Source of the DNA: a bacterium
GTDB taxonomy: Bacteria; SAR324; NAC60-12
DNA: 29,882 nt
Direction: 5' to 3'
Assembly (NCBI GenBank): GCA_965233585.1
Contig: CBDDTI010000079.1
Coordinates: forward strand, 1 to 29,882
The translations under genes were made by a program, and so were the position numbers. Below, one piece after another: positions 10,481 to 27,800 of the stretch. Positions within the stretch are counted from its first letter, which is position 1, and each line of letters opens with the position of its first letter. The notes below the pieces were generated by a model, which saw nothing but the letters and a program-made list of their open reading frames with translations, did no database searches and had not been told where the DNA came from.

Positions 10481-13400
10481 CCACTACCATATCGATTGAG
10501 CGACCCTCTTCGCAGGCCACTAATATCTTGTACTGTTTTGCAGTCTCAGTTCCCCTGAGAAGAAGGATGAGCACGAACGACCAACCGCGCAACATCAGGT
10601 GGGAGTTCCCAGCCCTTGCCCTCCACAATTCCTCTAAGGCTTCAGTCAACCCCGTGGAGAGCGACATCAGGGAAGAAACTCGAGTGGCCCCTCACCGACC
10701 TGGGACCTCAAAGCGGAGACTCCAACCACCAAGGGAGCCTTCCACCGGGGCGAGGGATGCCGTTCCCAGAACCATATCGCCCACTAGACCCAATGGTCCT
10801 GATGCCGACGGTGCCAGCAGAATAGGCGTCGACACCGATCAGAATCACTTCAGCTATACTCGGGGGGGGGGGGGCTACGGCCGTTATGGGACCGGAGGTG
10901 GATTATTTGATGACTACTCTACACACCGGGTCGACCGACAAACGGAATGACAAGCATGGTTGACGAGGAACCCGTTGCTCAGTCGAGCTGAGTAGGACCT
11001 CCCACAACTGCACATGGCTCCTAGCCCAAGGCCAAGAAGGTCTACTGAAAGGGCTCTCGCCAGGAAGAAAAGATCAAAGAGCTCTGCATGGGAAGAGTCA
11101 AAAGCTGAAGACGGTACCCATGACGAAGTCACCCTGGGTGAGGAGAGTGATGGAGATTGTTTTGTAGAACCACCCGATGCTAACCTTGGCATCCAGGCAT
11201 TCGACGCTACAAACCCGAAGATCCAGGGATCCCCTGTGGAATTGTCCCCACCAGAGTCTTCAAAGGAGATGAGCCTGCTCCAGGGACTCCATGTTCCACC
11301 CATGACATTTCCCAAGAAAAACCTTCTCAAGCGGGACCTGATAAGAGACATTTCACCTTCAGAATCTCCAGACTCCGACGTTGAAGTGGTCGGACCCCTC
11401 ATTATAACCACCGACCCGAAGGCCAAAGAGGGAAACACCACAGCAAACCCGAAGAATCCCTCCCCTCTGGTTGTGGTCATTTAAACAGAAAGATTGGGGA
11501 TGGAGAAGAAATTGCCGAAGGGGCATTGGGCGGATTCCGATTCTAACGAATCCCTTCTGAGAACAGTCTTCCGGTCCAGCATGAGGGAACACTCTCCCTC
11601 CAGCGGCAGTCCATCTTCCAGTACCTCCGCTGTCAAGAGTCAGGACGATCTTGTGGAGTTGCCCTCCATCTACTGGGACGCGCCCTGCCCGGCTCGTGTT
11701 CCCAACATAAAGTTGTCGCCGGACCGGCACGCGAGCACCCTGTTTTGGTCGCAATGTAGGAAGACCCTGTAGACTTGGAAACCAACAAAAGTGATCTTTT
11801 CCGTGACGAAACCGGACGACCCGTGGTTGCCAGGTGAGGCAGTGTTGTCAGAGCCTTGGAGGCTGAAAACAGTGATCTTTTCAGTGACTAAACTGGACAA
11901 CCCACGGCTACCAAGTGAGTCAGTGTTGCTAGAGCTTTGGGCTTGGAGGTCGAATGAAAAATTAATGATTCGGAATACTTTGGGAATTCGGGACTTGCAA
12001 ATGATTCTTCCCAATTTGGATGTTCAGTTTGTGGGGAAGTCAGGTGACGCCTGTAGGACTGCGGCTGCCGCGGCTTCACTCCCCCCTTGAGGGCTTTCCG
12101 TAGGGAATGCCGGGGGAATTAATCATCGGAGCTTCTCCCCATAGGATTCGGAACCAAGACTCTGAACATTGGACAGTCGAAGAGTGGATTCAGGCTCCCC
12201 ACAACCCGATCGCAGGTACCACCGGCCCGTGACTACCTCTTCCTGGCCTCCCGTCCTTCACCCACGGATGCCCCGCCAGACCAAATAGCGACCCTGTCAA
12301 CAGAGGCCTCTACGAAGACAGATCACTACATTATTAATGGTGCCCTTTTTCACTTTGAGTGTCTCTTACACTGTGCCATGCTTGTGGTTAAGTGGTCACC
12401 AGCGTGTCTCCTGGTCAGCGGGTCTAGGAGTAAACCTGTGACATCTCTGGCCCCGTCCCGGTCACGCATCCCAGCCACCATTCTAAGGCCAGTCTGGTAT
12501 TTCGCCACCTTCCGGAGGAGCGCTACACCGACGGCAGGGACTTGCCCTCTCTGGAAGAAGATCCCACACCGCTCCTTGAAGGAATGCTGCCCACCGCACA
12601 GTTGTAGTGACCTGAGCCCTGTCACCCTTGTCATTGTCATGCGATATGAACGAAACAATCCAGTAAGTTCCTGCTCCGGCTATAACATTTATCAGTTTCC
12701 CTTTTACACAGATTCTGATATGGCTACCACCCTGGAGATGAACGAGATAACCCAGCTCTGTCCATGGAGCCCCCTCGAGGGAAATGGCTTGCCATGACAG
12801 GTTTTTGAACAGGTACGCCGTGGAAGGACGACTCCCAGCCACGCAGACAGTTGAGTCTTGCCGACAGCCGCGATTCTTCCGGGCGTCGAGGGCGCGAAAC
12901 AAGGGCTGCCGGCCCTCCCGACTCGGTCGGTCCTAACAGCTGCTTCCTTGTCCAGATCAACACCCCGACTAGCTCATCCATGTCCGGAGGGCTTCACCTC
13001 ACTTCTCCATTCGCTTCTACACGGACCCCTCAGTACATCATCTTAGGTTCGCTTGCAGGACTCCTCCCCGTCGCCACGGCCAACCGCTTCACCCTCAAGA
13101 GTGGATATGGCACGTTGAAGCCTGGTATCACCTCACGGCGGACTGCTCCGACCCTTGGAAGTACAGGCCTACTGCAGCGTTCCAGCCAGCCACTGCAGCA
13201 TCCGGGCTACCCCCGTCCAAAAGGATCGACCACCACAGTTCCAACTCTTGCAAAAGGAGAAGAAAAGGTATCTCACCGCATACGTTTGTTTCATTTTTAA
13301 GATGGATATCAGCTACAACTGCGGAGCATACGGACACCCGGAGCTGGATCCCTTGCACTGGTCTTTCTCAGTCAGAATGGTCTCATTCGAACAGTAATGA

Positions 13401-13528
13401 TTATCTTTTAGTGTTGGGTCAACACTTCAAGAAAATATTTACATGTTATGACAGCGCTATTTCCACACTTTAAGAAAATTTAAAAATCTAAAATCTTCCA
13501 AAAGTTTATGAGCGTGCATGTGTTGTAG

Positions 13529-13702: not shown

Positions 13703-14050
13703 CAGGCTCAATCGAGCCTGTTTTCGTCTGTAATCGGCCTGCAACCGGCTTGTTTTCGTCTGCAATCGGCTTGCAACAGGCTCGATCGAGCCTGTAATCG
13801 GCCTGCAACCGGCTTGTTTTCGTCTGCAATCGGCTTGCAACAGGCTCAATCGAGCCTGTTGCAAGCCGATTACAGGCTCAATCGAGCCTGTTGCAAGCCG
13901 ATTACAGGCTCAATCGAGCCTGTTGCAAGCCGATTACAGGCTCAATCGAGCCTGTTGCAAGCCGATTACAGGCTCAATCGAGCCTGTTGCAAGCCGATTA
14001 CAGGCTCAATCGAGCCTGTTGCAAGCCGATTGCAGACGAAAACAAGCCGG
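13703..14050. repeat. Subterminal palindromic repeat array (32-bp unit x6 plus inverted flanks)
   Basis: CAGGCTCAATCGAGCCTGTTGCAAGCCGATTA at 13841, 13873, 13905, 13937, 13969 and 14001 (last copy ends ...GATTG). Extra CAGGCTC-N4-GAGCCTG cores at 13703 and 13777. 13809-13847 is the inverted copy of 14012-14050. Confidence 0.95.
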
Positions 14051-14337
14051 TTACAGGCTTGTTGCAACATCTATTTTTCTCCATTGTCAAATTGTTCTCG
14101 ATTTAAAAGCGCAAAGAAAGGTTCTAAGAATGAAAAATGTTTAAAAATTCCGTCCTTTTTGCTCCAAACCCGCTCAAATGTAATTTTTCAAACTCTAAAT
14201 TTTAAAAAGAAGAATTTCCAAAGTTGTTTCTGATAAGACAAAAATTTGATCGCGCGTATCAAAGTTTTCATCCAATCCTGTTAAAAATTCAACTCACAGT
14301 CGTTTTCAACCGTTTCAATTATCAAGACATCTATTTT

Positions 14338-15708: not shown

Positions 15709-17455
15709 TTAAATTGGGTTTTTAATTACAATATTTAAAATAACACTTTTTTCGTTGTCGAATTCAATTAAGTCTCCGTCTAATCTCCTTAATTCAATCT
15801 TCATGTTGTCTAAATAATCAACATTGCATTTGATAAATTCTAAATGCTCGAAATGGATCGAGCAGTAGTCATTTTGTTTTGACTGTCCGATCGTGGGAAT
15901 AATTCTAAGTATTGGGTAAAATTTGTCTCCGACAATAGAATGCTGAACAAAATTGGCATAACAAATCATAACACCAGGATACAGTTTGTAAATGTCTATC
16001 GGTTGTGGTGCTTGATAAACTGAGTAATTTCTCACAGCAAAAAAATGGTAGTTGTTTTGATCACTAACTCTTTGTTTTTCTTCCATTGGGGTAATCGTAC
16101 ATTCCTAAAATCGGACAAAAGCTTTGTGGAAATCCAATTATAAAAATTTGTTCAGTTTTAGCCGTAATTCTTAAATATCCATTGACGTTTTCAAAATATA
16201 CTAGTTCCTTTAATTCTTCTGTCAATAAATCATTCATTGCCGTTGTTAAATCGTTAGAGTCACAAAAATAATTTTTTGGTATATTCAATTTGTGTTCTTC
16301 CTCTCTGTTTTCATCCTTAATCAGTTTTATAATTATTGGTTCATTAGCGATTGATTCTGGAATGCTACATATGCTGTCGGGAAAAGAAATATCCATCAGG
16401 GCAATTTTCGCGTTTGGATTTAAATGCAGTGGATGTTTTAAATGCACCCAAAAGCTACTATTTGTATTTTCGTAATCCAATTTGGCATCTACTTTCGAAT
16501 CGATTCGCACGTGTCTCAATTCGTGATCCATGTTTTTTTCTTTCTCCCTCAAATGGTAATGAATTAGAGACGGTTGACCTTCGTTTAAGCTCAAAAGATT
16601 TCCAAAAGCATCTGTGAATTGAGAGTTTATCGTCTCAATATTGGTTTGCCGCACTTGATAATATCTGACCTTTTTTACATTATGGTAAAAATAATGACCC
16701 TCCATTTGCTTAGGTAAAGTTGTTGTAAACATAATTGTGGAATAATTATCACTGTTAGGAACGTCGGAAATAATATTTGATTTTACGTGAACTAAACCAG
16801 GTTTCAAAACGGAAGTCACTTTATTTGCAATGGTTTGAAACCTAAAATTTTTTTGTAACGGATAATATACATATTCGTTACCAAAATATTTAATTGATTT
16901 TTCTCCAGAAAATAACACTCCATCTTTATAACATCTTAACTTTATAATTTTTATTAAATGTTGATGAATTAGTAAGTATCTATTATAATTTTCATTTTCC
17001 GTCTCATTTTCGGTTTCTTTTTTAGGACCTTCTTCAATTATGTAGAATCTTTTAGTTTCACCGTCTGATTCGAGGTCACCACTAGCCATTTTCATTCCTT
17101 CCTTGTAAATATATTGCATCAAATTTTGCATTAATCTAAATACTGTCAGATCTTCTTCATCTAAATCAGGCAAAACCCAAACAGATTTTGTCTGGTTTAA
17201 AATCTCGGTCTTTATCTCCTCTTCTGAAGAATTTATAGATGTTAATTCGTTTTTTAGCGTTATGACACCGATTTGACCTTTTGTCATGGTTAATTGGTTG
17301 TAATTATAATGTAACCCCATAGATACTATTCCAATTTCCCATTCTCTATTTTTCAAATCTAAATTTTGTGGAAATAAATTGGTAAAGGAATTTAAAGTAT
17401 TTTTGACGTCCGTATTGGAACCAGCGTTTGACACGCAATAAATGTTATAATCCAT
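15709..17455 (-). CDS. Minor capsid (penton-like) protein with two tandem domains; 1-bp frameshift at ~16090 splits it into 463 + 125 aa ORFs
   Basis: A penton-type N-terminus (YCVSN..NTLNSFTNLFPQNLDL..EWEIGI) recurs at residue ~309 (RIDS..NTNSSFWVHLKHPLHL..KIALMDISFP). Penton-type C-termini occur twice (IETINSQFTDAFGNLL; SIVGDKFYPILRII..MKIELRRLDGDLIEF). Confidence 0.8.
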
Positions 17456-17461
17456 TCCACG

Positions 17462-18544
17462 TTATTGTGACACATCAACTACATCTTTCTCATATGTCCA
17501 ACTAGGGTTTTTATACCCTTTCCATTTCACCAAAACCATTTTTTCACCTGTTTTTTTATCTTTTTTTGTTCGTAAAACCTTTTCAATCATAAATAATTCC
17601 GGCTCATTCACGGGAGTAAGTTCACTCTCATAAAAATTTCCTTCCAGAGTTTCATCCTGTTCTAAAGTTTCCAATTCATAAGTAGGTTTAGGCAAACGAG
17701 TAAAAATTGATTTTATTTTAAAAATTTCTTCCTTAAATTGTTGTGTAAAACCTCTGTCAAATTTTCCCTTCATTATGCTAATGCGCACGGTTTGACCAAT
17801 TTTGTATTTTGGTCTTTTTCTTTTAAACTTTGAATAATGCAATTCCTGTTTTCTTCTAATAAAATAAGTCCGACCGGGGAGCTCAGCTTCAGCGGGTGAC
17901 ATCCCAATCATACGATGTTTACGATGGTTGTAGGTATGAACAAGAAAAGGTAATGCGTCGATGTACCTATCTGTATTTTCGTGAGTCATGTATTTAAACA
18001 TCAGATTTTTTAAAGTTCGGTTAAATCTTTCCACAAAAGGGGCGTGCACAAAATTGTTGCTGTGTAATAGAAGAATGTTATTGTTTTTGCAGTAGGCTTG
18101 AAACAATTTATTCTTTATTTCTGCGCCTTTATCAGCTAAAATTCTACGAGGAAACTTTTTTGCTCTTTTCATAATAGACTCGAATCCCTCCATAAAAGTT
18201 TTTGCTGTTTTATTTTTTAAGGGTTCTACAAACGCGAATCGTGTAAAAATATCAATAGCTGTTAAAAGGTATCTATTCCCGTCATTTTCTTCGATCAAAT
18301 TTCCTAAATCTATAAGATCAATTTGAAATTGATATCTCTTATGATAAGCAAATGTCGGATTTCTAGGTTTAGGTAATTTTGGTTGTTTATGAAGTGTGTA
18401 AGAATCAGTTCCCTTTAACCATTCTTCAATTGTCGTTAAAGGAATTTTTTTTCCATAATAATAATAAATCAACGCAGGAGATGCAAAAGCTATTGGTGAG
18501 CCTGGTCTTGCATATTCTTTTAAAAAAATCTCTTTTGTTGTCAT
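17462..18544 (-). CDS. Retroviral-type (rve, DDE) integrase with C-terminal chromodomain
   Basis: FQIDLID, LTAIDIFTR, ILADKGAE, VERFNRTLK; chromodomain FMIEKVL..VLVKWKGY..SW. Confidence 0.97.
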   Translation of the reverse strand: MTTKEIFLKEYARPGSPIAFASPALIYYYYGKKIPLTTIEEWLKGTDSYTLHKQPKLPKPRNPTFAYHKRYQFQIDLIDLGNLIEENDGNRYLLTAIDIFTRFAFVEPLKNKTAKTFMEGFESIMKRAKKFPRRILADKGAEIKNKLFQAYCKNNNILLLHSNNFVHAPFVERFNRTLKNLMFKYMTHENTDRYIDALPFLVHTYNHRKHRMIGMSPAEAELPGRTYFIRRKQELHYSKFKRKRPKYKIGQTVRISIMKGKFDRGFTQQFKEEIFKIKSIFTRLPKPTYELETLEQDETLEGNFYESELTPVNEPELFMIEKVLRTKKDKKTGEKMVLVKWKGYKNPSWTYEKDVVDVSQ

Positions 18545-18550
18545 TTCTTT

Positions 18551-18952
18551 TTAAAACAAGGGTTGTTTAGTTATTCTCCGTCTTTTTTTCCTAGATTTAG
18601 CAATTGACGGGGTTTTCCTCTTTCTGCTCGAATTTTGAGCTCGATATTCGTTGTTGGTATCTGCTTGTCTAGCAGCGTTAAGCAAAATACCGCGAGTAGC
18701 TGATTTTAATCGTTGTTTAGCTTTTCTACCGACCGGTTGACCCTCCAAAGCCTCTAATGCAGTTTCTACCGCCGCCTTTGTCGCCTCTTTTTTTAAAGCT
18801 TTACCTGCGGATCTTATCGGTGCGCTTCTAGCCACTTTTCCAATAGTTTTTACCGCTGATCTTGCTACCGGCATTAAACCGCGAAAAATTCCGGAAAAAA
18901 GTGATCCGATTCCCGAGCCTCGTTGCCAACGTAAGCCGCTGTGGTAATTCAT
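18551..18952 (-). CDS. Basic virion core-like protein with QRGSG protease site and amphipathic helix
   Basis: QRGSGIGSLFSGIFRGLMP is a motif typical of small Polinton/adintovirus core proteins; Lys/Arg-rich tail. Confidence 0.75.
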   Translation of the reverse strand: MNYHSGLRWQRGSGIGSLFSGIFRGLMPVARSAVKTIGKVARSAPIRSAGKALKKEATKAAVETALEALEGQPVGRKAKQRLKSATRGILLNAARQADTNNEYRAQNSSRKRKTPSIAKSRKKRRRITKQPLF

Positions 18953-18960
18953 ATATTTTC

Positions 18961-19680
18961 TTATTGCTCTAGACTTTTAAGACATCTGTATAAAGACATA
19001 ACACTGACGCCTAAAATACGAGCCGTATTTTTGACGCTCGGATATAGTGCTCTTGTTTCTTTTAAAAAGGCATAAGCACATGCTGCTAATAAAGTCCTAG
19101 GAGCAAAAGAACTATTTTCATTTTTATTTAGTTTCTCTTTTATAGTTGTCATCTCTTGATAATTTAACTGTAGAGGCTGTAAAAAATATTCTGCCATATC
19201 TTTTGCTTTTATAGAATTTTCTGTTTTAATTGTGTTGGTCGAATCTTGTCTGTATAATTTTATCCATCGCCATACCGTTTTTGGGCTAATACCAATTTCC
19301 TGACACAAGTGACTTATTGGGCGGGGAATTTTTTCCTCTATTAAACTTTGATACAATGCCATAGCAATTAAGCCTTTTGGATTAATTTTAATTTTTCCAT
19401 TTTTTTGATAATGCCACGCTGCTATTTCTGACCACAAATTAAAAATAGTGTTTGTAACATCATTATTTAAATGTAATTTATTACATAAATTTTTTAAAAT
19501 ATTTTTTTCCTTCTTTAAATGTTCGCTGTTTTGTTCAAATTCTTCATTTAAATTTTTTATTTTTTCCCATTTTGTTTCTAAATTTGGATCACAATATATT
19601 TTATCAATAACTAAACCACACTCGGTGCACACTACGTCTCCTTGTCTGGTGTCTTCTATTATATATTGATGAATGCACAT
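18961..19680 (-). CDS. TFIIB-like transcription initiation factor
   Basis: Zn ribbon CIH...EDTRQGDVVCTECGLVID, close to the TFIIB D..GD.VC.ECGLV motif. Two cyclin-fold-like repeats end in HTH-like segments (LCQEIGISPKTV, ARILGVSVMSL). Confidence 0.9.
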   Translation of the reverse strand: MCIHQYIIEDTRQGDVVCTECGLVIDKIYCDPNLETKWEKIKNLNEEFEQNSEHLKKEKNILKNLCNKLHLNNDVTNTIFNLWSEIAAWHYQKNGKIKINPKGLIAMALYQSLIEEKIPRPISHLCQEIGISPKTVWRWIKLYRQDSTNTIKTENSIKAKDMAEYFLQPLQLNYQEMTTIKEKLNKNENSSFAPRTLLAACAYAFLKETRALYPSVKNTARILGVSVMSLYRCLKSLEQ

Positions 19681-19786
19681 TTTAATCCAATCTAATTTTT
19701 GAACATAATTTCATTGTTTATTGCACGAAGTTCAAAATTTAACTGATTTTACAAATAATCCGACGTAATCTTTTATTATATTGAAT

Positions 19787-20329
19787 TTATTCAGTTTTAT
19801 ATTTTTTCAGCAATTCAGAAATAATTTTTATTCCTTGTGTAGCGTCTTTTTCGCAGGAAGCTCCAATTATTACTATTTTTCCAGACGAAAATATTAAAGC
19901 AGAACACTTTTTTAATGTTAAAAACATTCCAGGAAATTTCTCAGAGTCGTATCTCTTTTGGATAATTTCAAAATCTACATTTAATTTCAAATTGTTGTAA
20001 AATGTTAATAAATTGATTTTTGATGACATATGACACAAACAAGTCATGTTTTCTATTTTAAACTTTTCAGTAATAAATTTACTACTTATAACAAGTTTTA
20101 ATTCGTCTAATGCTTTTGGTATATGCTCTGTGGAAGGGATTTTAGTAATATTTACGTGGAAATTTCGATTTTGCTTTGTTTTAGTAAACACAATAAAAGA
20201 ATATTTTTTTTTAACAACAGTAAAATTATTATAATGTTTTAGTACATTATCGGTATTAAAAGAAATTTTGTCACTGTCGATGAGACGAATTTTGCAACTG
20301 ATTTTAACATTGCTGACCATCACTTCCAT
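19787..20329 (-). CDS. TATA-binding protein-like (180 aa from ATG 20329)
   Basis: Two-repeat layout VSNV.../IENM...; YDSEKFPGM and ALIFSSGKIVIIGA match the TBP YEPE.FPGL and LIF.SGK.V.TGA motifs. Confidence 0.92.
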   Translation of the reverse strand: MEVMVSNVKISCKIRLIDSDKISFNTDNVLKHYNNFTVVKKKYSFIVFTKTKQNRNFHVNITKIPSTEHIPKALDELKLVISSKFITEKFKIENMTCLCHMSSKINLLTFYNNLKLNVDFEIIQKRYDSEKFPGMFLTLKKCSALIFSSGKIVIIGASCEKDATQGIKIISELLKKYKTE

Positions 20330-20335
20330 CTTGGT

Positions 20336-21685
20336 ATGGGCTTGCCCGACAAAAGCGGAATTGCTGGATTGGCCGTGGAACAAAACGATGGCACAGAAAG
20401 TGGTTTAGCGCTTCACGCACCCTTAGAAGTGGAAACGGGTCTATTGGAAGGGGCTCACGTTATTTACAATAGCGTGGCTTCTATCACCAACACCGGTCCG
20501 GTAGAATTTCTTGTTCCTCGCGACAACGAGTGTTCTTTTATACTGAGTCAAACCAGACTCAGTGGGCATTTTGTAGTGACAAATGATGACGGTGGCTTTG
20601 TCACGGACGCAAGTAAAACCGCGTTGGTAAATCATTTTGCTGCTTGTTTATTCAGTCAAGTAGAAGTGTATTTGAACGGTGTTCAAGTAGCTGATTTAAG
20701 TTCGGCGGTCACCTACCCCTGGAGAATGTTTTTACAATCATATTTAAGTTACAATATTGACGTAAAAGACACTTATCTGGCTGCCGAAGGATATTATCCC
20801 GAAACTATAGACGAAGTTACCACCACCAAAATTACCGAAGAAGTTTCCTCTCATTCTTTGAAAAAAAGAAAGAATTTGATTTTAAACGGGAAAAAAGTAT
20901 TTTTTAACTCGCGTATAGCTGTTGATCTGTTTGACACTGATCGATTTTTACCACCAAATGTGGATATCAAGATAAAATTGGTTAGATCGGCTGAAACATT
21001 TGGTTTGCTTCAAGATCCTGCAGCAGCAAAACCTTTCAAAATTGTGTTGAAAGATGTCAAATTGCATATGAGAAAAGTGTTGCCCACGTTGATAATACGA
21101 GAAAGTTTCAAAAACAAACTTTTAAAAGAACCGTGCTACCTGCCTTTCAGCTCTACACGTTTAAGACATTACGTTATTCCTCAAGGCGTGTCGTCTTTTA
21201 ACATCGCTAATATTGCTAATGGAACATTACCCAAACAAGTGTTTTTTGTGATGGTTCACAATCAGGCTATGTCGCATGCTCCCGACAAAAATCCTTTTAA
21301 TTTTCAACACTTTAATCTTTCCTCGTTTAATTTAAAAAAGAACGGGCAATGCGTATTTCCCAAACCTTTTCAACCTAACATAGAGGAAGGGGACGTTGTT
21401 GACTTATATCGGCATTTATACGACAGTATAGGCATTTCGCACGGCAATCAGTCCATTGGCTTGACGTATGATGCTTTTATAAATGGAAGATTTTTTCTGG
21501 CGGCCGACTTGACACCAGATCAATGTAATTCGTACCACACACATCCAGAAAATTATGGAAATTTAGATTTAGAGTTGGCTTTTTCCCAAATCACTCCCCA
21601 TCCAATATACGTTCTGGCCTTATCTATTTTTAACTCCGGTATTAAAATAGATCAATTTCAACAAGTCATAAAAGGAACCAATTAA
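20336..21685 (+). CDS. Major capsid protein (double jelly-roll, Polinton type)
   Basis: 449 aa; GPVEFLVP, LFSQVEVYLNG, FLPPNVDIKIKL, LPKQVFFVMV, NPFNFQHFNL, DLTPD, GNLDLELAF are characteristic Polinton MCP motifs. Confidence 0.93.
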   Translation: MGLPDKSGIAGLAVEQNDGTESGLALHAPLEVETGLLEGAHVIYNSVASITNTGPVEFLVPRDNECSFILSQTRLSGHFVVTNDDGGFVTDASKTALVNHFAACLFSQVEVYLNGVQVADLSSAVTYPWRMFLQSYLSYNIDVKDTYLAAEGYYPETIDEVTTTKITEEVSSHSLKKRKNLILNGKKVFFNSRIAVDLFDTDRFLPPNVDIKIKLVRSAETFGLLQDPAAAKPFKIVLKDVKLHMRKVLPTLIIRESFKNKLLKEPCYLPFSSTRLRHYVIPQGVSSFNIANIANGTLPKQVFFVMVHNQAMSHAPDKNPFNFQHFNLSSFNLKKNGQCVFPKPFQPNIEEGDVVDLYRHLYDSIGISHGNQSIGLTYDAFINGRFFLAADLTPDQCNSYHTHPENYGNLDLELAFSQITPHPIYVLALSIFNSGIKIDQFQQVIKGTN

Positions 21686-21688
21686 AAT

Positions 21689-22171
21689 ATGGAGGGTGGG
21701 TTATCAAATATCTTTTTAAACAATTACATTCGACCCAGATGTAAGAATTTCATCGGAGTATTTTCGGTCGACGACTTGCCATCTGATCCGCTTTCATTGC
21801 CTTGCTGTCTGATCGCTAACTTATCCAAAAGAAATCAAGAAGGATCTCATTTCGTAGCAATGTACATTAACAAGAAAAATCAACTCTATTATTTTGATTC
21901 TTTCGGTTTTTTACCACCGATATGGAACAAATGTTTGATGAAGTTTTTACGACCCTGGATAGAGAAAAACTCCTTCAAAATTATCTTATCTCACTCAATT
22001 CAGAGTTTCCGTTCTTTGTTTTGTGGATGGTACACGTGCGCATTTTGTTTATCTGTGGGCAACAATTTAATGACCCCTCAACAATTTGTTAAATTATTTG
22101 TAAAAAATCCCAAATCAGAAAATGATAAAATTGTAACTCACTTTATAAAAAAAATTGAAAATAAATGTTAA
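21689..22171 (+). CDS. Adenain-like cysteine maturation protease
   Basis: FIGVF, GSHFVA (His), YFDSFG (Asp), IQ....FCGWY (Gln, Cys). Confidence 0.95.
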   Translation: MEGGLSNIFLNNYIRPRCKNFIGVFSVDDLPSDPLSLPCCLIANLSKRNQEGSHFVAMYINKKNQLYYFDSFGFLPPIWNKCLMKFLRPWIEKNSFKIILSHSIQSFRSLFCGWYTCAFCLSVGNNLMTPQQFVKLFVKNPKSENDKIVTHFIKKIENKC

Positions 22172-22184
22172 TATATTTTTACTT

Positions 22185-23645
22185 TCATAACTTTGGATAT
22201 TTTCCTGAAAAAAGTTTTTTAACAGAATCTACTTTAGCTTCTGATTTAGACATTTTTCTTGTTTTTGATCTGGTTTTTGCAGGAGACACACCAGCTTCAA
22301 TAGGGTCCCTGTTTATTGGGCTTTTAGATTGTGACATTTTCATTGATTTTGATCTGGTTTTGGTTTGTGCAGGAGTCATGTCAGCATCAGTGGAATTTCT
22401 TTTTGTTGCACCCTTCGATTTAGCTTTTCCGGCTGAAAATCGTATTTTAACAGGTGTGAGTGGAAATGAAGGAGAAGAGCTTCCAATTCCTCTTAATCTT
22501 CTTTTTCGAGGGGTAGAGGTCATTCCAAAAATTTTATCTTGATTTCTTACAGACAATTCTTTATAATGATCTTTCATCATATGTTTGGCAAATTGTGGAA
22601 TGCCGACATATTGCTTCCCGCAATTGGGAAAGGGACAAACTATTTTGCCAGCCGCATTCTTTTCTTTCACTGCTTTTGCAATAGGTGTATTTCGCCAATT
22701 TAACACAACTGGAGATTTTATTGTGGAAAGTGCGTATGAGTAATCCGTTTCATTTGAGCTGTTTCTTCTAGCGTAAGGGCTGGAAATCATTCCTTTAATG
22801 GTCTTTTTGTCTTTCAAAGCTATATCTTTAGGATGATCTTTTAGCAAATGTTTGCCTAATTGCCCTTCATCAACATATTGCTTCCAACAATCAGGAACTG
22901 GACAAACTAATTTGCCTTTTGAATTTCTTTTCGTCATCGCTTCTAAAACAGGTGTTTCTCGCCATTCTTCTCGTTTGGTAGTAACAGGAGTTGAATAAGC
23001 TGATTCGTTCGGACTTTTTGTTTTTTCAGGACTAAGAGATTTTTCTGCAACAAATTCTCTTTCAATAATGGGGGTACTAGGTAAATTATTTTCTTCTTGT
23101 TGGGGAATTTCAGTGGGTGTTCTGTAAAGAGATACGTCCGTGAGATCCATATTGGTATCAATTCGAGCAGGTGTTAGTGCATTTGGTATTTCTTCTCGTT
23201 GCGTTATTTGGGTGGATGGTGATCTTAAAACCGGGTGGTAAGCGCGGTCAATACTGCTACCTTTTTGGGTAACTCGACCAGGAGACATTACATTCTGTAT
23301 TTCTTCTCGTTGAGGAATTTGAGTGGATGGTGATCTCGAAAGAGATTGGTAAGTACGACCCATGCTATCAGATTGGGCAATTGATGTGACATTCGGTAAT
23401 TTATCAGACCCAAAACGAAGTAATTTATCCCCAGTTTGGATTATTTTCTGTCTGTCTTGTAGATTTTTAAATTTAATGGCATTTTCAATATAGTTGGTTG
23501 TTTCCGGTTTTTCATTCATAGAAATAAGTTCCTTTTTTGATTCATCGTCTTCCGTATTTTTTATTAATGAATAATATAATCTTTTAGGTACTAAAAACAT
23601 GGAATACATTTCATCATGTGGTTTTATTTTTACTCCTGAGCTCAT
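22185..23645 (-). CDS. Protein with two C2H2 zinc fingers, S/T-P-rich repeats and a basic tail (486 aa)
   Basis: CPVPDC..QY....LGKHLLKDH and CPFPNC..QY....FAKHMMKDH; internal repeats RSPSTQI.QREEI. Confidence 0.8.
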   Translation of the reverse strand: MSSGVKIKPHDEMYSMFLVPKRLYYSLIKNTEDDESKKELISMNEKPETTNYIENAIKFKNLQDRQKIIQTGDKLLRFGSDKLPNVTSIAQSDSMGRTYQSLSRSPSTQIPQREEIQNVMSPGRVTQKGSSIDRAYHPVLRSPSTQITQREEIPNALTPARIDTNMDLTDVSLYRTPTEIPQQEENNLPSTPIIEREFVAEKSLSPEKTKSPNESAYSTPVTTKREEWRETPVLEAMTKRNSKGKLVCPVPDCWKQYVDEGQLGKHLLKDHPKDIALKDKKTIKGMISSPYARRNSSNETDYSYALSTIKSPVVLNWRNTPIAKAVKEKNAAGKIVCPFPNCGKQYVGIPQFAKHMMKDHYKELSVRNQDKIFGMTSTPRKRRLRGIGSSSPSFPLTPVKIRFSAGKAKSKGATKRNSTDADMTPAQTKTRSKSMKMSQSKSPINRDPIEAGVSPAKTRSKTRKMSKSEAKVDSVKKLFSGKYPKL

Positions 23646-23647
23646 TT

Positions 23648-24022
23648 TTAACGACGACGTCGCGAACTCTTATTTGCAATAATTTGAGCCAAAAGAGGGA
23701 TGACGGTGCTGGCGATCGCTGATAAAACTCCTAAAATTCCGCCCTTTTGTAATATTTTTCTTTTTTTTGAAATGTCGGAAGAACGACGCGGCGGTGCAGC
23801 AAGACGTCTAAATTCTGTCAAATGAGCTCTTATCTTTTTTTGAAGACGTGTTCGTACTTTGCCATGTATGGGCAAGTCACCGTTCAACACGTAATGTAAT
23901 ATACGACAAAGCAATTCAACTCCGCGATCGTCCAAATGACTTAAAAAATTGGCACAATCCTGATGTTTTAATTTTTTTATTACATAAAAAAGTGAACTAG
24001 CTTTTCCTAATGTTTTAGACAT
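23648..24022 (-). CDS. Adenovirus pX-like core protein precursor
   Basis: C-terminal QKGG|ILGVLSAIASTVIPLL resembles the adenoviral pX xxGG|ILPLLIP end; basic protein. Confidence 0.7.
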   Translation of the reverse strand: MSKTLGKASSLFYVIKKLKHQDCANFLSHLDDRGVELLCRILHYVLNGDLPIHGKVRTRLQKKIRAHLTEFRRLAAPPRRSSDISKKRKILQKGGILGVLSAIASTVIPLLAQIIANKSSRRRR

Positions 24023-24070
24023 TTTGACAGTTGCAATTTTTTATTTTTCTTAAATAGATATGAAAATCCT

Positions 24071-24766
24071 TTAAACGGTAACGTAAGCTTTCATCAGTCC
24101 CTCGTACGGAAAAATGTTGCTTCGAATTCTGACTTTATCGTCTTGTTGTTGATGGAAATCTAGAAGGAGATATCCGTGACTTCGACCGTTAACAGCTTCC
24201 CTGTATGCTTTATTTAAAATTCCGACTCGTCCGGGGAAAATTTGTTTAGCCAAATGCGCAACCGCACTTCTGTCCCGAGGATTGTTAAAAAGAACCATAT
24301 ACTGTGTGTTTATGCTTAATGTCCGCAAATCACCTTTTTTATCAAATAAATTTTGACACAGAAAAACGGTGAAACAATTGTAGTGATGAGTCAAAACCGT
24401 AAAAAAATGTTTTAATATTTGTCCAACATCGTCTAAATAATCATCAAAAACAACTAATTTGGGCATTTTTCTTGGATATGATTCCAAAATATCTTTTAGT
24501 TCTTCAATCGAATTTGGAATACTTTTAAATTTACGAAATGTTGGAAAGCGAGAGTTTGAACGTTTGTCTCGATTCATATCATCTTCCATGTATTCATAAG
24601 CTTTTTGTGGTTCTTTGTAGAACAACAACATTGTTTCTGGTGGAGTTGCAAAATATTCATGCCTACCAACCACTAAATGTTTAAGCCACGTTGTTTTTCC
24701 ACTCGATGTTGGGCCAACAATTAACATGTTGGAAGGAATACTGAACCTTAAATCAAAACCATCCAT
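24071..24766 (-). CDS. FtsK/A32-like genome packaging ATPase
   Basis: Walker A GPTSSGKTT, Walker B LVVFDD, FLCQN, RTLSIN..Y, HGYLLLD. Confidence 0.96.
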   Translation of the reverse strand: MDGFDLRFSIPSNMLIVGPTSSGKTTWLKHLVVGRHEYFATPPETMLLFYKEPQKAYEYMEDDMNRDKRSNSRFPTFRKFKSIPNSIEELKDILESYPRKMPKLVVFDDYLDDVGQILKHFFTVLTHHYNCFTVFLCQNLFDKKGDLRTLSINTQYMVLFNNPRDRSAVAHLAKQIFPGRVGILNKAYREAVNGRSHGYLLLDFHQQQDDKVRIRSNIFPYEGLMKAYVTV

Positions 24767-24829
24767 TTTGCTAGTTTTTGAAAAATATTTAAAAATTTTT
24801 TCTTAAATAAAAGTAACAATATGTTTTAT

Positions 24830-27800
24830 TTATTTACAAATAGGGCATTTAGATGATTTGTTGTTGACAATAAGACAATTTCCTAGTGATAAAGTGTGAT
24901 ATCCGCAATTCAAAATGTGTCTTTTGGAATCCATTGCTGATAACGCAATCTTTCTTTGAAAACATGTCCGAATTTTATGATTCTTTGATCTTAAGTTTTT
25001 GAAAGATTTGTAAATTAGAACAGTCCGTTTCAGACATTTTTTGTAATCGTTATAGGTTAATTGCTTTTTTATGCTAGATTTTTTTAAACCTTTGCAAATT
25101 TTCTTTTCTTCTGTTTTGTTTTTGTCTGAAAAATCAGTAATTTTCATAGAATAACATTTTGGACGTAAGCCTATAAAGTGAGTAATAGCTGCTCTGCCTT
25201 TTAGTTCGTCTTTGAAATAAAAAAGCTGATTGGCTCTACTGTCATCGAAAAGAGGATGTTGTTTGGGGTACTTTGAAAAATCAAATATGTGCTCCAATTT
25301 TTTCATTTCCCTTTCCAAGTTGTTGCATCTTACTTTTAAAAGAAAAGAATCCGTGTCTGAGAAACATAAAGACACATTTTCTTCGCCAAAATGTTGTTGA
25401 ATCGTGTCATAATACGATCTGTACATAAACAACTTGGACAATTCCAAAATAGAAAATCCAACAGCTAAAGGCTTCCTGAGCTCTATTATTGCCGGCTTCT
25501 TGTTGACAGCCACCAAGTTTTCATTGATGATTTGAAAACTGTTGATGTGTTGACCAAGACTGGCTTTCCTTAAGCTCTGTTCATCACCACAAAGGACCAC
25601 TTCAGAGTAATTTCGAACATTTTCTGAAATGCAGAATAAGATTTATTTAATAAAGAAAATTGATTATGTGCGCAATCACCTCAGCTAACTAGCCGTCCCA
25701 TATCACATTTCATTTTCCTCTGTAATTAGCAATGTACTATAATTTACTTCAATTTGAAATCATTCCTTTTTTAAAGCCCGACATAAACGGACATCAAAAA
25801 TTCCAACAAAATAAACACTAAGTCAAAATGGATAAAAAAGATCAGGAAAAGAGCAAAGCTTTTTGGTTAAAAGTAATAAAATCAGCCCAGGAGGAGGCAA
25901 CTTCAAGTCCGACTTCTGGCAGTAGCTCTACCGGGGCTGCGGCTGGGGGAGCATGGTCATCTACTAAAACTGAGGGAGCATGGTCATCTTCTGGGGCTGC
26001 GGGTGGAGGATCATGGGCATCTTCCGAGCGTCCCGTGGCACCTGCTTGGCCATCACGGACTCCGTACAAGTCCGTCCCACAAAAATCAGGGTCGGAGTCG
26101 TGGAAGAGCGCATCTACTGCCGGGGTCGGGGGCGGAGGAGCATGGTCATCCACTAAAACCGGAGGAGCATGGTCATCTTCTGCGGCCTTGGGTGGGGAAT
26201 CATGGTCATCTTCCGAACGTCCCGTGGCACCTGCTTGGCCATCACGGACCCCGTACAAGTCCGTCCCACAAAAATCAGAGCGGGAGTCGTGGAAGAGGCA
26301 TCTACTGTCGGAGCCGGGAGTGGGGGAGCATGGTCATCCACTAAAACTGGAGGAGCATGGTCATCTTCTGGGGCTGTGGGCGGAGGAGCATGGTCATCTG
26401 CTAAAAATGAGGGGGCATGGTCATCCACTAAAACTGCGGGAGCATGGTCATCTTCTGCGGCCTTGGGTGGGGGATCATGGGCATCTTCCGAACGTCCCGT
26501 GGCACCTGCTTGGCCATCACGGACCCCGTACAAGTCCGTCCCACAAAAATCAGGGTCGGAGTCGTGGAAGAGCGCATCTACTACCGGGGCTGGGGGCGGG
26601 GGAGCATGGTCATCTACTAAAACTGGAGGAGCATGGACATCTTCTGGGGCTGTGGGCGGAGGAGCATGGTCATCTGCTAAAACTGAGGGGGCATGGTCAT
26701 CTACTAAAACTGGAGGAGCATGGTCATCTTCTGCGGCTTTGGGTGGAGAATCATGGGCATCTTCCGAGCGACCCGTAGCACCTGCTTGGCCATCACGAAC
26801 CCCGTACAAATCCGTCCCACAAAGGTCGGAGTCAGAGTCACGAAAGCAGACCTCTCATCGCGTGTCATTTGATTTGTCTTCACAATCAACACAAAAATCT
26901 AAACCACAACCCTATACTCACGTGGAACCTTCACCAACACCAGAAGTGCGTCAAGTAACGGCATTTCCATCAGTGTGGTCTCCGTCTACAGCTCGAAAAG
27001 TTACAAAAAAAAATTAAAATTTAAATTTGATCATTTTTCTTTTTCTTTTTGATTACAAAATAAACACATCATTTTATAAAAATTGATTTTTCAAAAGTTT
27101 GCGTACTTGATTAATTCATTTTGCGAATTTTTAATTTAATATTGATTTAATATTATGAATATTTATGAGATAATTTGCTAATTAATATGTGAAGGTTTGG
27201 AGATTCATTTTCTAAAATTGACAAAACCATGCGGGAAAATTCAAAACAAATTTAGAGAAGGAAGAGGAGAAGGAGAAGGAAAAGGAAAATGGACAAGGTA
27301 AAGTTAGGAAGGATGAGGAGGGGGAAATACGAGGTGTTGAGGGCGAAATGGACGGAAGAGGAGGAGGAGGAGAAGTTCAAGCTGCTGCCGGACCCGCCAT
27401 TGAGCGAGACACCGCCGCGTCCACCACTGATGTGGGGCGGTGGCCGTTTTAGACGGCTTGCCAGAGGCTTGATCATGATGATCAGGACGGCCGCCGCCTC
27501 CGTCGCCGACTTTGTTGCCGGTCGTCCGGACGTCATCCCCACCGACGTCATCCCCGCCAACGTCATCCCCACCGACGTCAGCCCCGCCGACGTCATCCCC
27601 GCCGACGTCAGCCCCGCCAACGAAGCCGATGTTTCTGAAGATGACGATTTTGATGAGGCTAAGTGTGTGGTTGGTGCCGGCAGGACGTACTGCCGCAACT
27701 GTCGCCGGTACCACCACGCACTTGTGCCTCAAAATTAAAGAAAAATACAAAAAATGACCCCAAATTCGTTTGAGTATTTAACAAATTCATTTTTTACAGA

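Follow-up and report, generated by a model that had tools for sequence, protein, structure and literature searches.

TBP and TFIIB homologues are known from cells and from several DNA viruses. The cellular TBP inserts phenylalanines into DNA at four positions, and its C-terminal stirrup is the side bound by TFIIB, the N-terminal stirrup being the TFIIA side. The Zn ribbon of TFIIB docks on the polymerase and its cyclin folds clamp the TBP-DNA complex; the cellular TFIIB also requires its B-reader and B-linker for DNA opening and start-site selection. Some of the nuclear Nucleocytoviricota are without a polymerase of their own, the poxvirus and asfarvirus factors act in the cytoplasm, and an origin of giant viruses from ancestors resembling Polintons is widely assumed. 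For the transcription of their genes, Polintons (polintoviruses) are commonly taken to depend entirely on the host. Among the viral systems, TFIIB was listed as a hallmark gene present in chloroviruses (PMC11847008, in excerpt). The TBP mimic of the beta- and gammaherpesviruses (ORF24/BcRF1/UL87) was described to act on late TATT-type promoters (excerpts of PMC12529657, PMC7498053, and PMC4893493), and the poxvirus VITF-3 and asfarvirus B263R-type factors were described as atypical viral TBP/TFIIB-like pairs on viral promoters (PMC12917281, in excerpt).

In the Polinton-like viruses, the label "TBP" was found in the MELD-virus maps of Starrett et al. 2021 (PMC8502044, Fig. 5 legend; preprint 10.1101/697771, legends of Fig. 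5 and 6). According to these excerpts, a TBP-like gene had been noticed in one or more midsize Polinton-like viruses from a non-animal dataset. The excerpted text of PMC8502044 contained no mention of TFIIB ("tfiib" 0 times), and no analysis, conservation or synteny accompanied the label. Our literature search found no paper listing a TBP + TFIIB pair in the Polinton gene set and no TFIIB in Polintons. The initial annotation had placed the pair outside the standard Polinton core set, and the bare figure-legend label is all that the literature, as far as these excerpts go, sets beside that view.

Our data support the presence of a Polinton-type element carrying a TBP-like and TFIIB-like pair in the window, i.e., the whole stretch of 29,882 nucleotides that was analysed. 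The element was AT-rich, embedded in repeat-rich eukaryotic DNA, and contained an rve integrase, an adenain-like protease, an A32-type ATPase, and fragments of a protein-primed PolB. The GC profile dropped from about 0.5 to about 0.32 at the left terminal region (13716–14060, no strand), which contained palindromic 32-bp tandem repeats (tandem repeats from 13719–14035, self-inverted matches from 13716–14058). Only this left end was present in the window; in a sibling copy on contig C288, both ends were present as inverted repeats some 460 bp long (13057–13516 vs. 36584–37023), with 91.5–91.7% identity and about 24 kb apart. A conserved gene of about 580 aa without Pfam match (15709–17455, minus strand) was divided here by a frameshift into ORFs of 463 and 125 aa; it was a single ORF of 577–583 aa in 18 of the 20 near-full-length intact matches of the assembly. 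It was followed by a retrovirus-type integrase with a C-terminal chromodomain (17462–18544, minus strand; PF00665 rve, E 2.5e-9, 37.7 bits, cut-off 32.6), whose Chromo match had an E of 1.2e-4 in the window and was above the cut-off in the relative L011. The 133-aa basic protein p133 (18551–18952, minus strand), with no Pfam match, was always found between the TFIIB-like gene and the integrase, its position being conserved in the assembly and in the environmental loci.

On the other side of the pair, a conserved 449-aa protein, a candidate capsid, was encoded on the plus strand (20336–21685), divergent to the TBP-like gene with the two ATGs 6 nt apart, and it was divergently upstream of the TBP-like gene in 54/54 environmental loci whose upstream sequence reached 400 nt or more. 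Like the roughly 580-aa protein, the other conserved protein considered for the double and single jelly-roll capsid proteins of Polintons, it had no Pfam match, and its profile gave 0 matches at E ≤ 1 against the PDB sequences. The adenain-like cysteine protease (21689–22171, plus strand) matched PF00770 with an E of 0.0064, below the cut-off in the window, and its homologue in the relative L012 reached 23.7 bits, above the cut-off. The pair had been placed by the initial annotation among virion genes; this was verified only in part, through the protease, weakly adenain-like here and above the cut-off in L012, the 449-aa neighbor being a candidate capsid protein. The minus strand further encoded a 486-aa protein with two C2H2-type zinc fingers (22185–23645; zf-C2H2 and FOXP-CC matches just below the cut-off), a C2H2 protein being present in L011 too, and the A32/FtsK-type packaging ATPase (24071–24766; Pox_A32 E 8.5e-4, below the cut-off in the window, and 36.9 bits, above it, in L012), followed downstream by a conserved 124-aa ORF, p124 (23648–24022). 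A C-terminal fragment of the protein-primed family B DNA polymerase, homologous to the PolB ORFs of relatives, was found from 24830–25426, and other pieces of PolB, among them an endonuclease VII-like domain (PF02945, E 6.7e-7), from 28505–29881, where they run off the window end, all on the minus strand. The window fragments matched PF03175 weakly (E 0.072), whereas the PolB ORFs of relatives reached 39.5–60.6 bits (cut-off 25.8), and the domain order with the endonuclease VII-like domain was repeated in L012, L022, and L067. As the window copy is degraded, with PolB split and the 580-aa gene frameshifted, function is argued here from the family and not from the window locus. No RNA polymerase family was matched among the 24 window ORFs and the 12 ORFs of L011 that were scanned, in keeping with the first impression that no such gene is visible.

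The TBP-like gene (19787–20329, minus strand) was an uninterrupted ORF of 180 aa. The protein matched Pfam PF00352 with an E of 1.1e-16 and 60.8 bits (cut-off 22.9), in residues 89–177 only, and its L011 homologue matched with 51.8 bits. With the family profile A1, built from 23 sequences, the PDB yielded 35 distinct sequences at E ≤ 0.01. Every one was a TBP or a TBP fusion (best 2.6e-21), and the matches were confined to the C-terminal half. No similarity was detectable between the profiles of the N- and C-halves (hhalign, probability 0.1%), and in the hhalign comparison of A1 with the distant match P0036 the C-repeat alone was aligned and the N-repeat was not. In the AlphaFold2 model (pLDDT 90.9), the S1-H1-S2-S3-S4-S5-H2 pattern was present twice, and the top 44 Foldseek matches in the PDB were TBPs (about 190 columns, TM 0.62–0.73). 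Identity to solved cellular TBPs in the structural alignments was mostly 17–21% and at most 28% (archaeal TBP). The S2-S3 loop of the N-repeat contained 3 residues against 7 in the C-repeat. Among 68 unique TBP-like proteins, some from loci that share as little as about 22% pairwise identity, F48, F132, and F147 were conserved as F in 68/68, F36 was F in 60 and Y in 8, and the stirrup residues P133 and G134 were invariant. F132 and F147 aligned with the F of "EEFPG" and "LIFSSGK" in the archaeal TBP (HMM alignment), and F36 and F48 would be their N-repeat equivalents as judged solely by strand positions in the model. The protein is thus a two-repeat saddle with a canonical C-repeat and C-terminal stirrup, and its N-terminal repeat and stirrup, the latter shortened, are remodelled relative to the cellular TBP.

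The TFIIB-like gene (18961–19680, minus strand) was likewise uninterrupted and encoded a minimal protein, 239 aa long, in which a short and variable linker joins a Zn ribbon of the CxH...CxxC type (about residues 1–28) to two cyclin folds (about 53–239). The ribbon matched PF08271 (E 4.3e-8, 33 bits, cut-off 29), and the cyclin repeat matched PF00382 below the cut-off of 23.6 (E 0.002, 18.5 bits), the L011 homologue reaching 42.9 bits for this repeat. The family profile (A2, 41 sequences) matched human TFIIB with an E of 3e-27 over the ribbon and both cyclin folds (core E 3e-20 to 3e-27), with a large gap opposite human residues ~46–105, i.e., the B-reader and B-linker; among its members, 26/41 matched the PF08271 ribbon family and 18/41 the TFIIB repeat family. 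The top 20 Foldseek matches of the model (pLDDT 89.0) were all TFIIB, with an rmsd of 3.5–3.8 Å over about 185 columns of the TFIIB cores and 13–20% identity to solved TFIIBs in the structural alignments; entries of TBP-TFIIB-DNA and Pol II PIC structures such as 1VOL, 1AIS, 1C9B, and 5IY6 were among the matches obtained for the pair. The Zn ligands C2, H4, C18, and C21 were invariant in 66/66 TFIIB-like proteins. The linker between ribbon and cyclin folds was 15–30 residues long, gapped and unconserved across these 66 members, with a pLDDT of 59–62 in the model, and no conserved B-reader or B-linker was found in the A2 alignment with human TFIIB or in the 66 members. A tryptophan at residue 38 was considered as a B-reader remnant and rejected, since it occurs in the window's own lineage only and 39/66 sequences have a gap there. 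The protein ended with the second cyclin fold and contained no Brf-type C-terminal extension. In a representative search, canonical-length TFIIBs surfaced only at an E of about 1e-6, after many short relatives, and among the clusters of 10 family members one was named ("TFIIIB Brf1 subunit / TFIIB"). The initial annotation had described tandem TBP-like and TFIIB-like ORFs of 180 and 239 aa, a near-canonical C-repeat next to a highly diverged first repeat, and a TFIIB with Zn ribbon and cyclin folds lacking a recognisable B-reader. All of this was borne out by the searches, the sequence matches of the first protein lying in the C-half only while its model has both repeats, and the structure and profile check that it had proposed recovered the TBP and TFIIB folds by Pfam, PDB profile, and AlphaFold2 with Foldseek.

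Compared with the cellular TBP-TFIIB and archaeal TBP-TFB systems, the pair shares the two-repeat saddle, the canonical C-terminal stirrup, and the Zn ribbon with two cyclin folds, and it has aromatics at four positions that may correspond to the intercalating ones. It differs in that both proteins are minimal, the N-repeat is unrecognisable by sequence, the B-reader and B-linker are missing, and the genes belong to a mobile element some 24 kb long. With the Nucleocytoviricota, among them chloroviruses and other algal viruses of the nucleus, it shares virus-encoded homologues of both factors. Of the viral structures, those closest to the TBP-like model were the giant-virus TBPs of Heterosigma akashiwo virus 01 (E 8.6e-10), Terrestrivirus, ChoanoV1, and EsV-1-53, and the nearest ESM-Atlas clusters were viral TBP-domain clusters. 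However, the genomes of the Nucleocytoviricota range from 100 kb to Mb, identity to the giant-virus TBPs was 8–19%, and in the element the two genes are adjacent, co-oriented, and set in an invariant block with integrase and protease. The viral pre-initiation complex of the herpesviruses resembles our proposal in that a nuclear DNA virus without polymerase brings in the host Pol II through a viral TBP-fold protein, as far as the excerpted sources describe it. BcRF1, UL87-type proteins, and U58 were weak fold matches to the TBP-like model (E 1e-4 to 8e-4), but they are large (577–1005 aa among the matches, against 180 aa), do not indicate membership, and contact the Pol II CTD directly, not via a TFIIB homologue (PMC7498053, in excerpt). 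A B263R homologue was also a fold match (E 7.5e-6); the VITF-3/B263R-type factors, however, serve a virus-encoded multisubunit polymerase (PMC12917281, in excerpt), whereas the element encodes none.

Promoter motifs were scanned in the upstream regions of environmental relatives with the strict pattern TATAWA-N17–30-CAGT (TATA+Inr). This pattern was found upstream of the TBP-like gene in 11/41 unique upstreams (shuffle mean 0.2, maximum 2), of PolB in 4/14, and of p133 in 2/34, with a TATA-to-A spacing of 31–35 nt. It was found in 0/40 upstreams of the 449-aa gene, 0/26 of the protease, 0/14 of the ATPase, 0/43 of the TFIIB-like gene, 0/32 of the integrase, and 0/15 of p124. By the strict pattern, the promoter of the TBP-like gene was found in only those 11 of 41 relatives, and it is missing in the window's own lineage, where neither TATA nor CAGT was present upstream of the TBP-like ATG, 6 nt from the divergent 449-aa ATG. 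The 106-nt spacer between the two genes (19681–19786, minus strand) contained TATA-like boxes, a CAGT, and AATAAA motifs. Across 8 lineage representatives, TATAAA (TATAAG in one) was kept in this spacer, followed by CAGT in 7/8, and these motifs lay in different reading frames or outside an ORF. For the non-canonical (late) promoters to which, in the initial annotation, the element may redirect the host Pol II, this promoter evidence is indirect. No shared "late" motif was established among the element upstreams. TATTTAA was found upstream of the ATPase in 5/14 (8 of 1000 shuffles as high), a weak signal noticed post hoc; it is no more than a hint of a TATT-type box like that of herpesvirus late promoters.

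We consider it probable that the real, selected pair forms a minimal virus-encoded promoter-recognition module, likely recruiting the host Pol II. With no RNA polymerase gene in the element, the nucleus is the most likely place of action for the pair, and use of the host Pol II is the likeliest reading. DNA binding, pairing of the two proteins, the choice of Pol II, and an early-to-late logic, which we infer, would run as follows. The two-repeat saddle of the TBP-like protein would bind a TATA-like box in the element promoters, the TFIIB-like protein would bind its C-terminal stirrup and the flanking DNA, and the ribbon would recruit the host RNA polymerase II, so that initiation would be TFIID-independent and element-specific. 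In the environmental relatives, the promoter in front of the pair is of host type, with TATA at −31 to −35 and an Inr (CAGT); the pair is therefore probably made early there by host factors and would then act on the genes without a TATA+Inr promoter, i.e., the 449-aa/protease and ATPase units. Since B-reader and B-linker are both lacking, it is not assured that the TFIIB-like protein by itself could bring about productive Pol II initiation.

Conservation of the pair was high. The TFIIB-like gene was directly downstream on the same strand in 41/41 TBP-like copies of the same assembly, with gaps of 79–136 nt, and likewise in 58/58 environmental loci whose downstream sequence reached 300 nt or more. 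The block PRO<-449aa<-|->TBP->TFIIB->p133->INT was kept down to about 22% (TBP-like) and about 15% (TFIIB-like) identity, and its order was conserved in contigs of about 17–20 kb in which PolB, ATPase, protease, and integrase were present too. The pair thus belongs to the core of a whole clade and is no peculiarity of one element. The pairwise identities of the two proteins co-varied (Mantel r 0.97, 0/999 permutations as high). The median dN/dS, computed on intact ORFs only and from non-independent pairs, was 0.14–0.20 for the TBP-like and 0.15–0.26 for the TFIIB-like gene, compared with 0.13–0.24 for the protease and 0.09–0.18 for p133; 39 of the 42 genomic matches had no internal stop. Being similar to those of the neighboring genes, the values of the pair (0.14–0.26) indicate selected genes and not a stray host capture. 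A PF00352 search of the assembly gave 41 matches, all over the cut-off and all element copies, with no host TBP among them. A search of sequencing runs for window positions 17400–22200 gave 6 entries, all of them Logan contigs of unspecified kind from 2 studies, with no RNA run listed. The idea that the TBP and TFIIB genes were taken from a host recently and without selection, which the initial annotation had itself named as one threat to its reading, could draw on the preprint 10.1101/697771, where the MELD-virus maps, in excerpt, place "TBP" under "homologs of host proteins". It conflicts with the dN/dS, with synteny held to such low identities, with the low identity to solved cellular TBPs and TFIIBs, and with the canonical-length TFIIBs appearing behind the short relatives. 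We give it, like chance ORFs, almost no credence; chance ORFs and dead captures were rejected on dN/dS, synteny, and divergence. The pair is supported as selected and ancient within its lineage.

The remaining alternatives accept a selected pair and differ in what it does. The missing B-reader and B-linker, with a linker unconserved across 66 members beside a strictly kept ribbon and DNA/TBP-binding core, would speak for the pair being a decoy or repressor that occupies TATA promoters or ties up Pol II without an open complex, leading to host shutdown or element silence, and its place in a co-oriented block with the integrase would also suit such a role. We regard this as unlikely, because both proteins keep every feature for assembly on DNA and for reaching the polymerase, they are conserved like core genes (58/58 and 41/41), a simple competitor would require one protein and not two, and activation by a viral factor of such an atypical TBP/TFIIB type has been described (PMC12917281, in excerpt). 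The co-orientation with integrase and the small basic p133, the palindromic repeats at the termini, and a diverged N-terminal repeat that could carry a new DNA specificity fit an architectural role as well, in which the TBP-like protein would bend terminal or origin DNA in protein-primed replication, integration or packaging, with the TFIIB-like protein as its clamp. This is improbable in our view, as an invariant Zn ribbon of the polymerase-docking type (66/66) has no obvious use there. We also know of no TBP/TFIIB pair acting outside transcription. Service to Pol III or Pol I in a Brf-like or Rrn7-like manner, e.g., for small non-coding element RNAs, appears very improbable: TFIIB-family factors do serve all three nuclear polymerases, and Brf1 and Brf2 were matched by profile (E 3e-11 and 1.2e-10) and by the fold search, but TFIIB was by far the best match (3e-27; top 20 fold matches), the Brf-type extension is absent, and the cargo of the element consists of protein-coding genes. 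The module acting with the host Pol II is thus the reading that we retain.

A conserved pair in polymerase-less elements of about 17–24 kb would represent a very small self-encoded promoter-recognition system working on a cellular polymerase. It offers two small proteins and a defined promoter set that can be tested directly, a natural experiment showing how far a TFIIB gets without B-reader and B-linker, and a new data point on how giant viruses assembled their transcription apparatus. A wider reading, which we hold to be doubtful, is that the pair is the ancestral core of a widespread Polinton clade, in which Pol II would be shifted from TATA+Inr early promoters (the pair and PolB) to distinct, possibly TATT-type, late promoters of the virion-side genes, and that it may have a common origin with the TBP/TFIIB of giant viruses. 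In that case, control of transcription initiation by viruses would predate viral RNA polymerases in the Bamfordvirae lineage.

The assembly that contains the element contigs had been rated a near-complete genome of a prokaryote, and a relative was filed as a giant-virus bin. Given these two placements, the pair could mislead marker-based classification.

The TBP-like gene (19787–20329, minus strand, 180 aa) and the TFIIB-like gene (18961–19680, minus strand, 239 aa) were found to be adjacent, as described in the initial annotation; both ORFs were uninterrupted, with a gap of 106 nt between them. The pair was present in an AT-rich stretch (GC approximately 0.28–0.37 in the GC profile), extending from near 13.7 kb to beyond the end of the window, and the DNA to its left had a higher GC content (0.46–0.60). 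This GC-rich left flank contained a Ty3-type RT-RNaseH fragment of an LTR retrotransposon (6449–7324, plus strand; PF17917, E 6.6e-24), which points to repeat-rich eukaryotic DNA as the context. In the direction of transcription, the minus strand carried the TBP-like gene, the TFIIB-like gene, a gene for a basic protein of 133 aa, the gene for a chromodomain-bearing rve integrase and a further gene of approximately 580 aa. The last gene was conserved and formed a single ORF of 577–583 aa in most sibling copies; the window copy, split into ORFs of 463 and 125 aa (15709–17455, minus strand) overlapping by 23 nt, therefore carries a frameshift. The plus strand encoded, divergently from the TBP-like gene, a protein of 449 aa and an adenain-like protease. 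Farther to the right, the minus strand contained genes for a C2H2 zinc-finger protein, a protein of 124 aa and an A32/FtsK-type ATPase, together with a protein-primed PolB present as fragments. Several of these assignments were weak by Pfam in the window; the homologues in relatives exceeded the curated cut-offs (PolB 39.5–60.6 bits, protease 23.7 bits, ATPase 36.9 bits). No capsid gene was confirmed by Pfam on the window ORFs or by searching the profile of the 449-aa protein against PDB sequences. A sibling copy had terminal inverted repeats, each about 460 bp long and separated by about 24 kb. The element is of the Polinton/Maverick type.

The TBP-like protein matched the Pfam TBP family at residues 89–177 (E 1.1e-16). 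When 23 family members were combined into a profile, it matched 35 distinct PDB sequences (E<=0.01); every one was a TBP or a TBP fusion, matched through the C-terminal half only. Profile-profile comparison found no similarity between the N- and C-terminal halves of the family. The AlphaFold2 model (pLDDT 90.9) contained the TBP strand-helix pattern twice and was aligned with solved TBPs across both repeats (TM 0.62–0.73). Among 68 unique members, whose pairwise identity between loci was as low as about 22%, Phe was invariant at three aromatic positions out of four and the fourth was Phe or Tyr, and the F-P-G of the C-terminal stirrup was invariant. The S2-S3 loop of the model contained 7 residues in the C-repeat versus 3 in the N-repeat. 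Cellular TBP faces TFIIB with its C-terminal stirrup and TFIIA with its N-terminal stirrup; the TBP-like protein therefore retains the side that the product of its neighbour should need.

The zinc ribbon of the TFIIB-like protein passed Pfam (33 bits against a cut-off of 29), and its cyclin repeat was below the cut-off; the homologue in the IMG/VR relative L011 passed with 42.9 bits. An exhaustive search of representatives gave 249 clusters at E<=1e-3, and most of the 150 listed were 200–290 aa. A 41-member profile matched human TFIIB (E 3e-27) over the ribbon and both cyclin folds, and all top fold matches of the model (pLDDT 89) were TFIIB. The four zinc ligands were invariant in 66/66 sequences. 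Opposite the human B-reader and B-linker the profile alignment contained a gap, the linker between ribbon and core being 15–30 residues long, gapped and unconserved. The profile and fold searches thus recovered both TBP and TFIIB, and they agree with the initial annotation in its near-canonical C-terminal and diverged first TBP repeat and in a TFIIB that keeps its ribbon and cyclin folds without a recognisable B-reader.

In the assembly of the window, all 41 TBP-like copies were followed by a same-strand TFIIB-like gene 79–136 nt downstream. Relative to the window protein, the TBP-like lineages were approximately 100, 86, 75, 39 and 34% identical, and 39 of 42 matches were devoid of an internal stop. 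This assembly (747 contigs, 12.0 Mb) received a prokaryote-genome completeness score of 92.5%; it is evidently a mixed bin, because it nevertheless contained 41 copies of a eukaryote-type element on 36 contigs and a retroelement fragment in the window flank. Beyond it, relatives of 28–40% identity were encoded on 67 metagenome contigs and a single IMG/VR contig. Among these loci, the TFIIB-like gene was next in all 58 that had 300 nt or more downstream, and the 449-aa gene was divergent upstream in all 54 that had 400 nt or more upstream; L050, a locus without a callable TBP-like ORF, was left out. Contigs of these relatives of about 17–20 kb contained the complete set of PolB, protease, ATPase and integrase. 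The divergence of the two proteins was strongly correlated (Mantel r 0.97; 0/999 permutations as high). Median dN/dS, taken from intact ORFs only and from non-independent pairs, was 0.14–0.20 for the TBP-like and 0.15–0.26 for the TFIIB-like gene, within the range of the protease and the 133-aa protein and above the integrase and ATPase. Across a whole clade, the pair is a core module that is inherited vertically. In the own-assembly lineages of 34–40% identity (e.g., contigs C47, C58, C98, C93 and C593), the 449-aa gene was found as two tandem paralogues, with 38–44% and 52–55% identity to the window protein.

The canonical signal TATAWA-N17–30-CAGT was found, in the environmental relatives, before the TBP-like gene in 11 of the 41 unique upstreams (against a mean of 0.2 and a maximum of 2 in shuffles), before PolB in 4/14 and before the 133-aa gene in 2/34. 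The distance from TATA to the A was 31–35 nt and from the A to the ATG 10–20 nt. In the same relatives it was absent before the 449-aa gene (0/40), protease (0/26), ATPase (0/14), TFIIB-like gene (0/43), integrase (0/32) and 124-aa gene (0/15). This distribution fits an early unit read by host factors, with the other units read differently, and lends indirect support to the mechanism proposed below. A TATAAA box (TATAAG in one) was kept upstream of the TFIIB-like gene in 8 own-assembly lineage representatives, followed by CAGT in 7/8; the position of this TATA box, either outside the TBP-like ORF or in varying reading frames, argues for constraint at the DNA level. The tidy promoter picture is weakened, since in the window the TBP-like ATG was 6 nt from the 449-aa ATG with neither TATA nor CAGT upstream, and no late motif was established in the upstreams of the relatives and the window. 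Two patterns were noticed post hoc: TATTTAA, 16–51 nt upstream of the ATPase ATG in 5/14 relatives (shuffle mean 1.2; 8/1000 shuffles as high), and TATTTAAGAAAAA, upstream of both the ATPase (24767–24829) and the 124-aa gene (24023–24070) on the minus strand of the window. They hint weakly at a TATA-type box of non-canonical form. The 449-aa and TBP-like genes of many environmental relatives (among L011 and L012–L078) were separated by 40–60 nt, where a TATA box lay within a few bases of the 449-aa ATG and CAGT 10–20 nt ahead of the TBP-like ATG, compared with a spacing of 6 nt in the lineage of the window; in these relatives the 449-aa gene must therefore have its promoter inside the TBP-like coding region or far off.

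No RNA polymerase family was matched among the 24 window ORFs, in keeping with the initial annotation, or among the 12 ORFs of L011; if the pair acts in transcription, it must therefore use a host polymerase. Host Pol II would be the likeliest partner, because TFIIB was clearly the best match of the 41-member profile, with Brf1 and Brf2 next at about 1e-10 to 3e-11. The viral TBP would bind a TATA-like box, the viral TFIIB would clamp it through the C-terminal stirrup, and the zinc ribbon would recruit Pol II, giving TFIID-independent initiation at the promoters of the element. Work with one of the other polymerases, Pol III or Pol I, we consider very improbable. The missing B-reader and B-linker make a decoy or repressor role plausible, although we regard it as unlikely, and an architectural role at the element termini is less likely, with little probability. 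That the genes are a dead or recent, non-selected host capture is practically excluded by selection (dN/dS 0.14–0.26) and by the conserved linkage of the pair. The earlier interpretation, in which the element may redirect host Pol II, is thus supported in part: the module itself is real and conserved, and its mode of action is a proposal.

Giant viruses are well known to encode homologues of TBP and TFIIB, and their TBPs were the nearest viral structures to the TBP-like model, at 8–19% identity. Chloroviruses carry TFIIB as a hallmark gene (PMC11847008), beta/gamma-herpesviruses bring Pol II to late promoters by means of a TBP mimic, and poxviruses possess an atypical TBP/TFIIB-like factor serving their own polymerase (PMC12917281). 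The searchable text of the adintovirus paper (Starrett et al., 2021; PMC8502044) and preprint contains a bare 'TBP' label in MELD-virus figure legends, without TFIIB and without discussion. Searches of the openly readable full-text literature gave giant-virus papers and no description of a TBP and TFIIB pair in Polintons, Mavericks or adintoviruses. What appears to be new is that this known viral strategy, a self-encoded TBP and TFIIB, occurs in a genome smaller than any known to use it and with a reader-less TFIIB.

The IMG/VR relative L011 (20.6 kb) carried a giant-virus-MAG-type (GVMAG) label yet contained a full Polinton-type block (PolB, protease, 444-aa protein, TBP, TFIIB, integrase and ATPase); its TBP and TFIIB genes may have contributed to this filing. 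A protein with C2H2 zinc fingers was encoded at 22185–23645 (minus strand) in the window and at 17411–19084 in L011, and could be a sequence-specific regulator alongside the pair. The PolB of the clade contained an endonuclease VII-like domain (PF02945) directly upstream of the polymerase domain (window 29474–29881, minus strand; metagenome relatives L012 3480–5978, L022 1974–4514 and L067 1047–4007), and some relatives possessed an additional N-terminal C2H2 finger. Between the PolB fragments of the window, a GC-rich block (25828–27020, GC about 0.56) contained tandem repeats of 87–276 bp. The GC profiles of the sibling copies on contigs C523, C411 and C288 also contained a GC-rich segment beside the PolB C-terminal fragment, and the block may therefore be older than the amplification of this subfamily.
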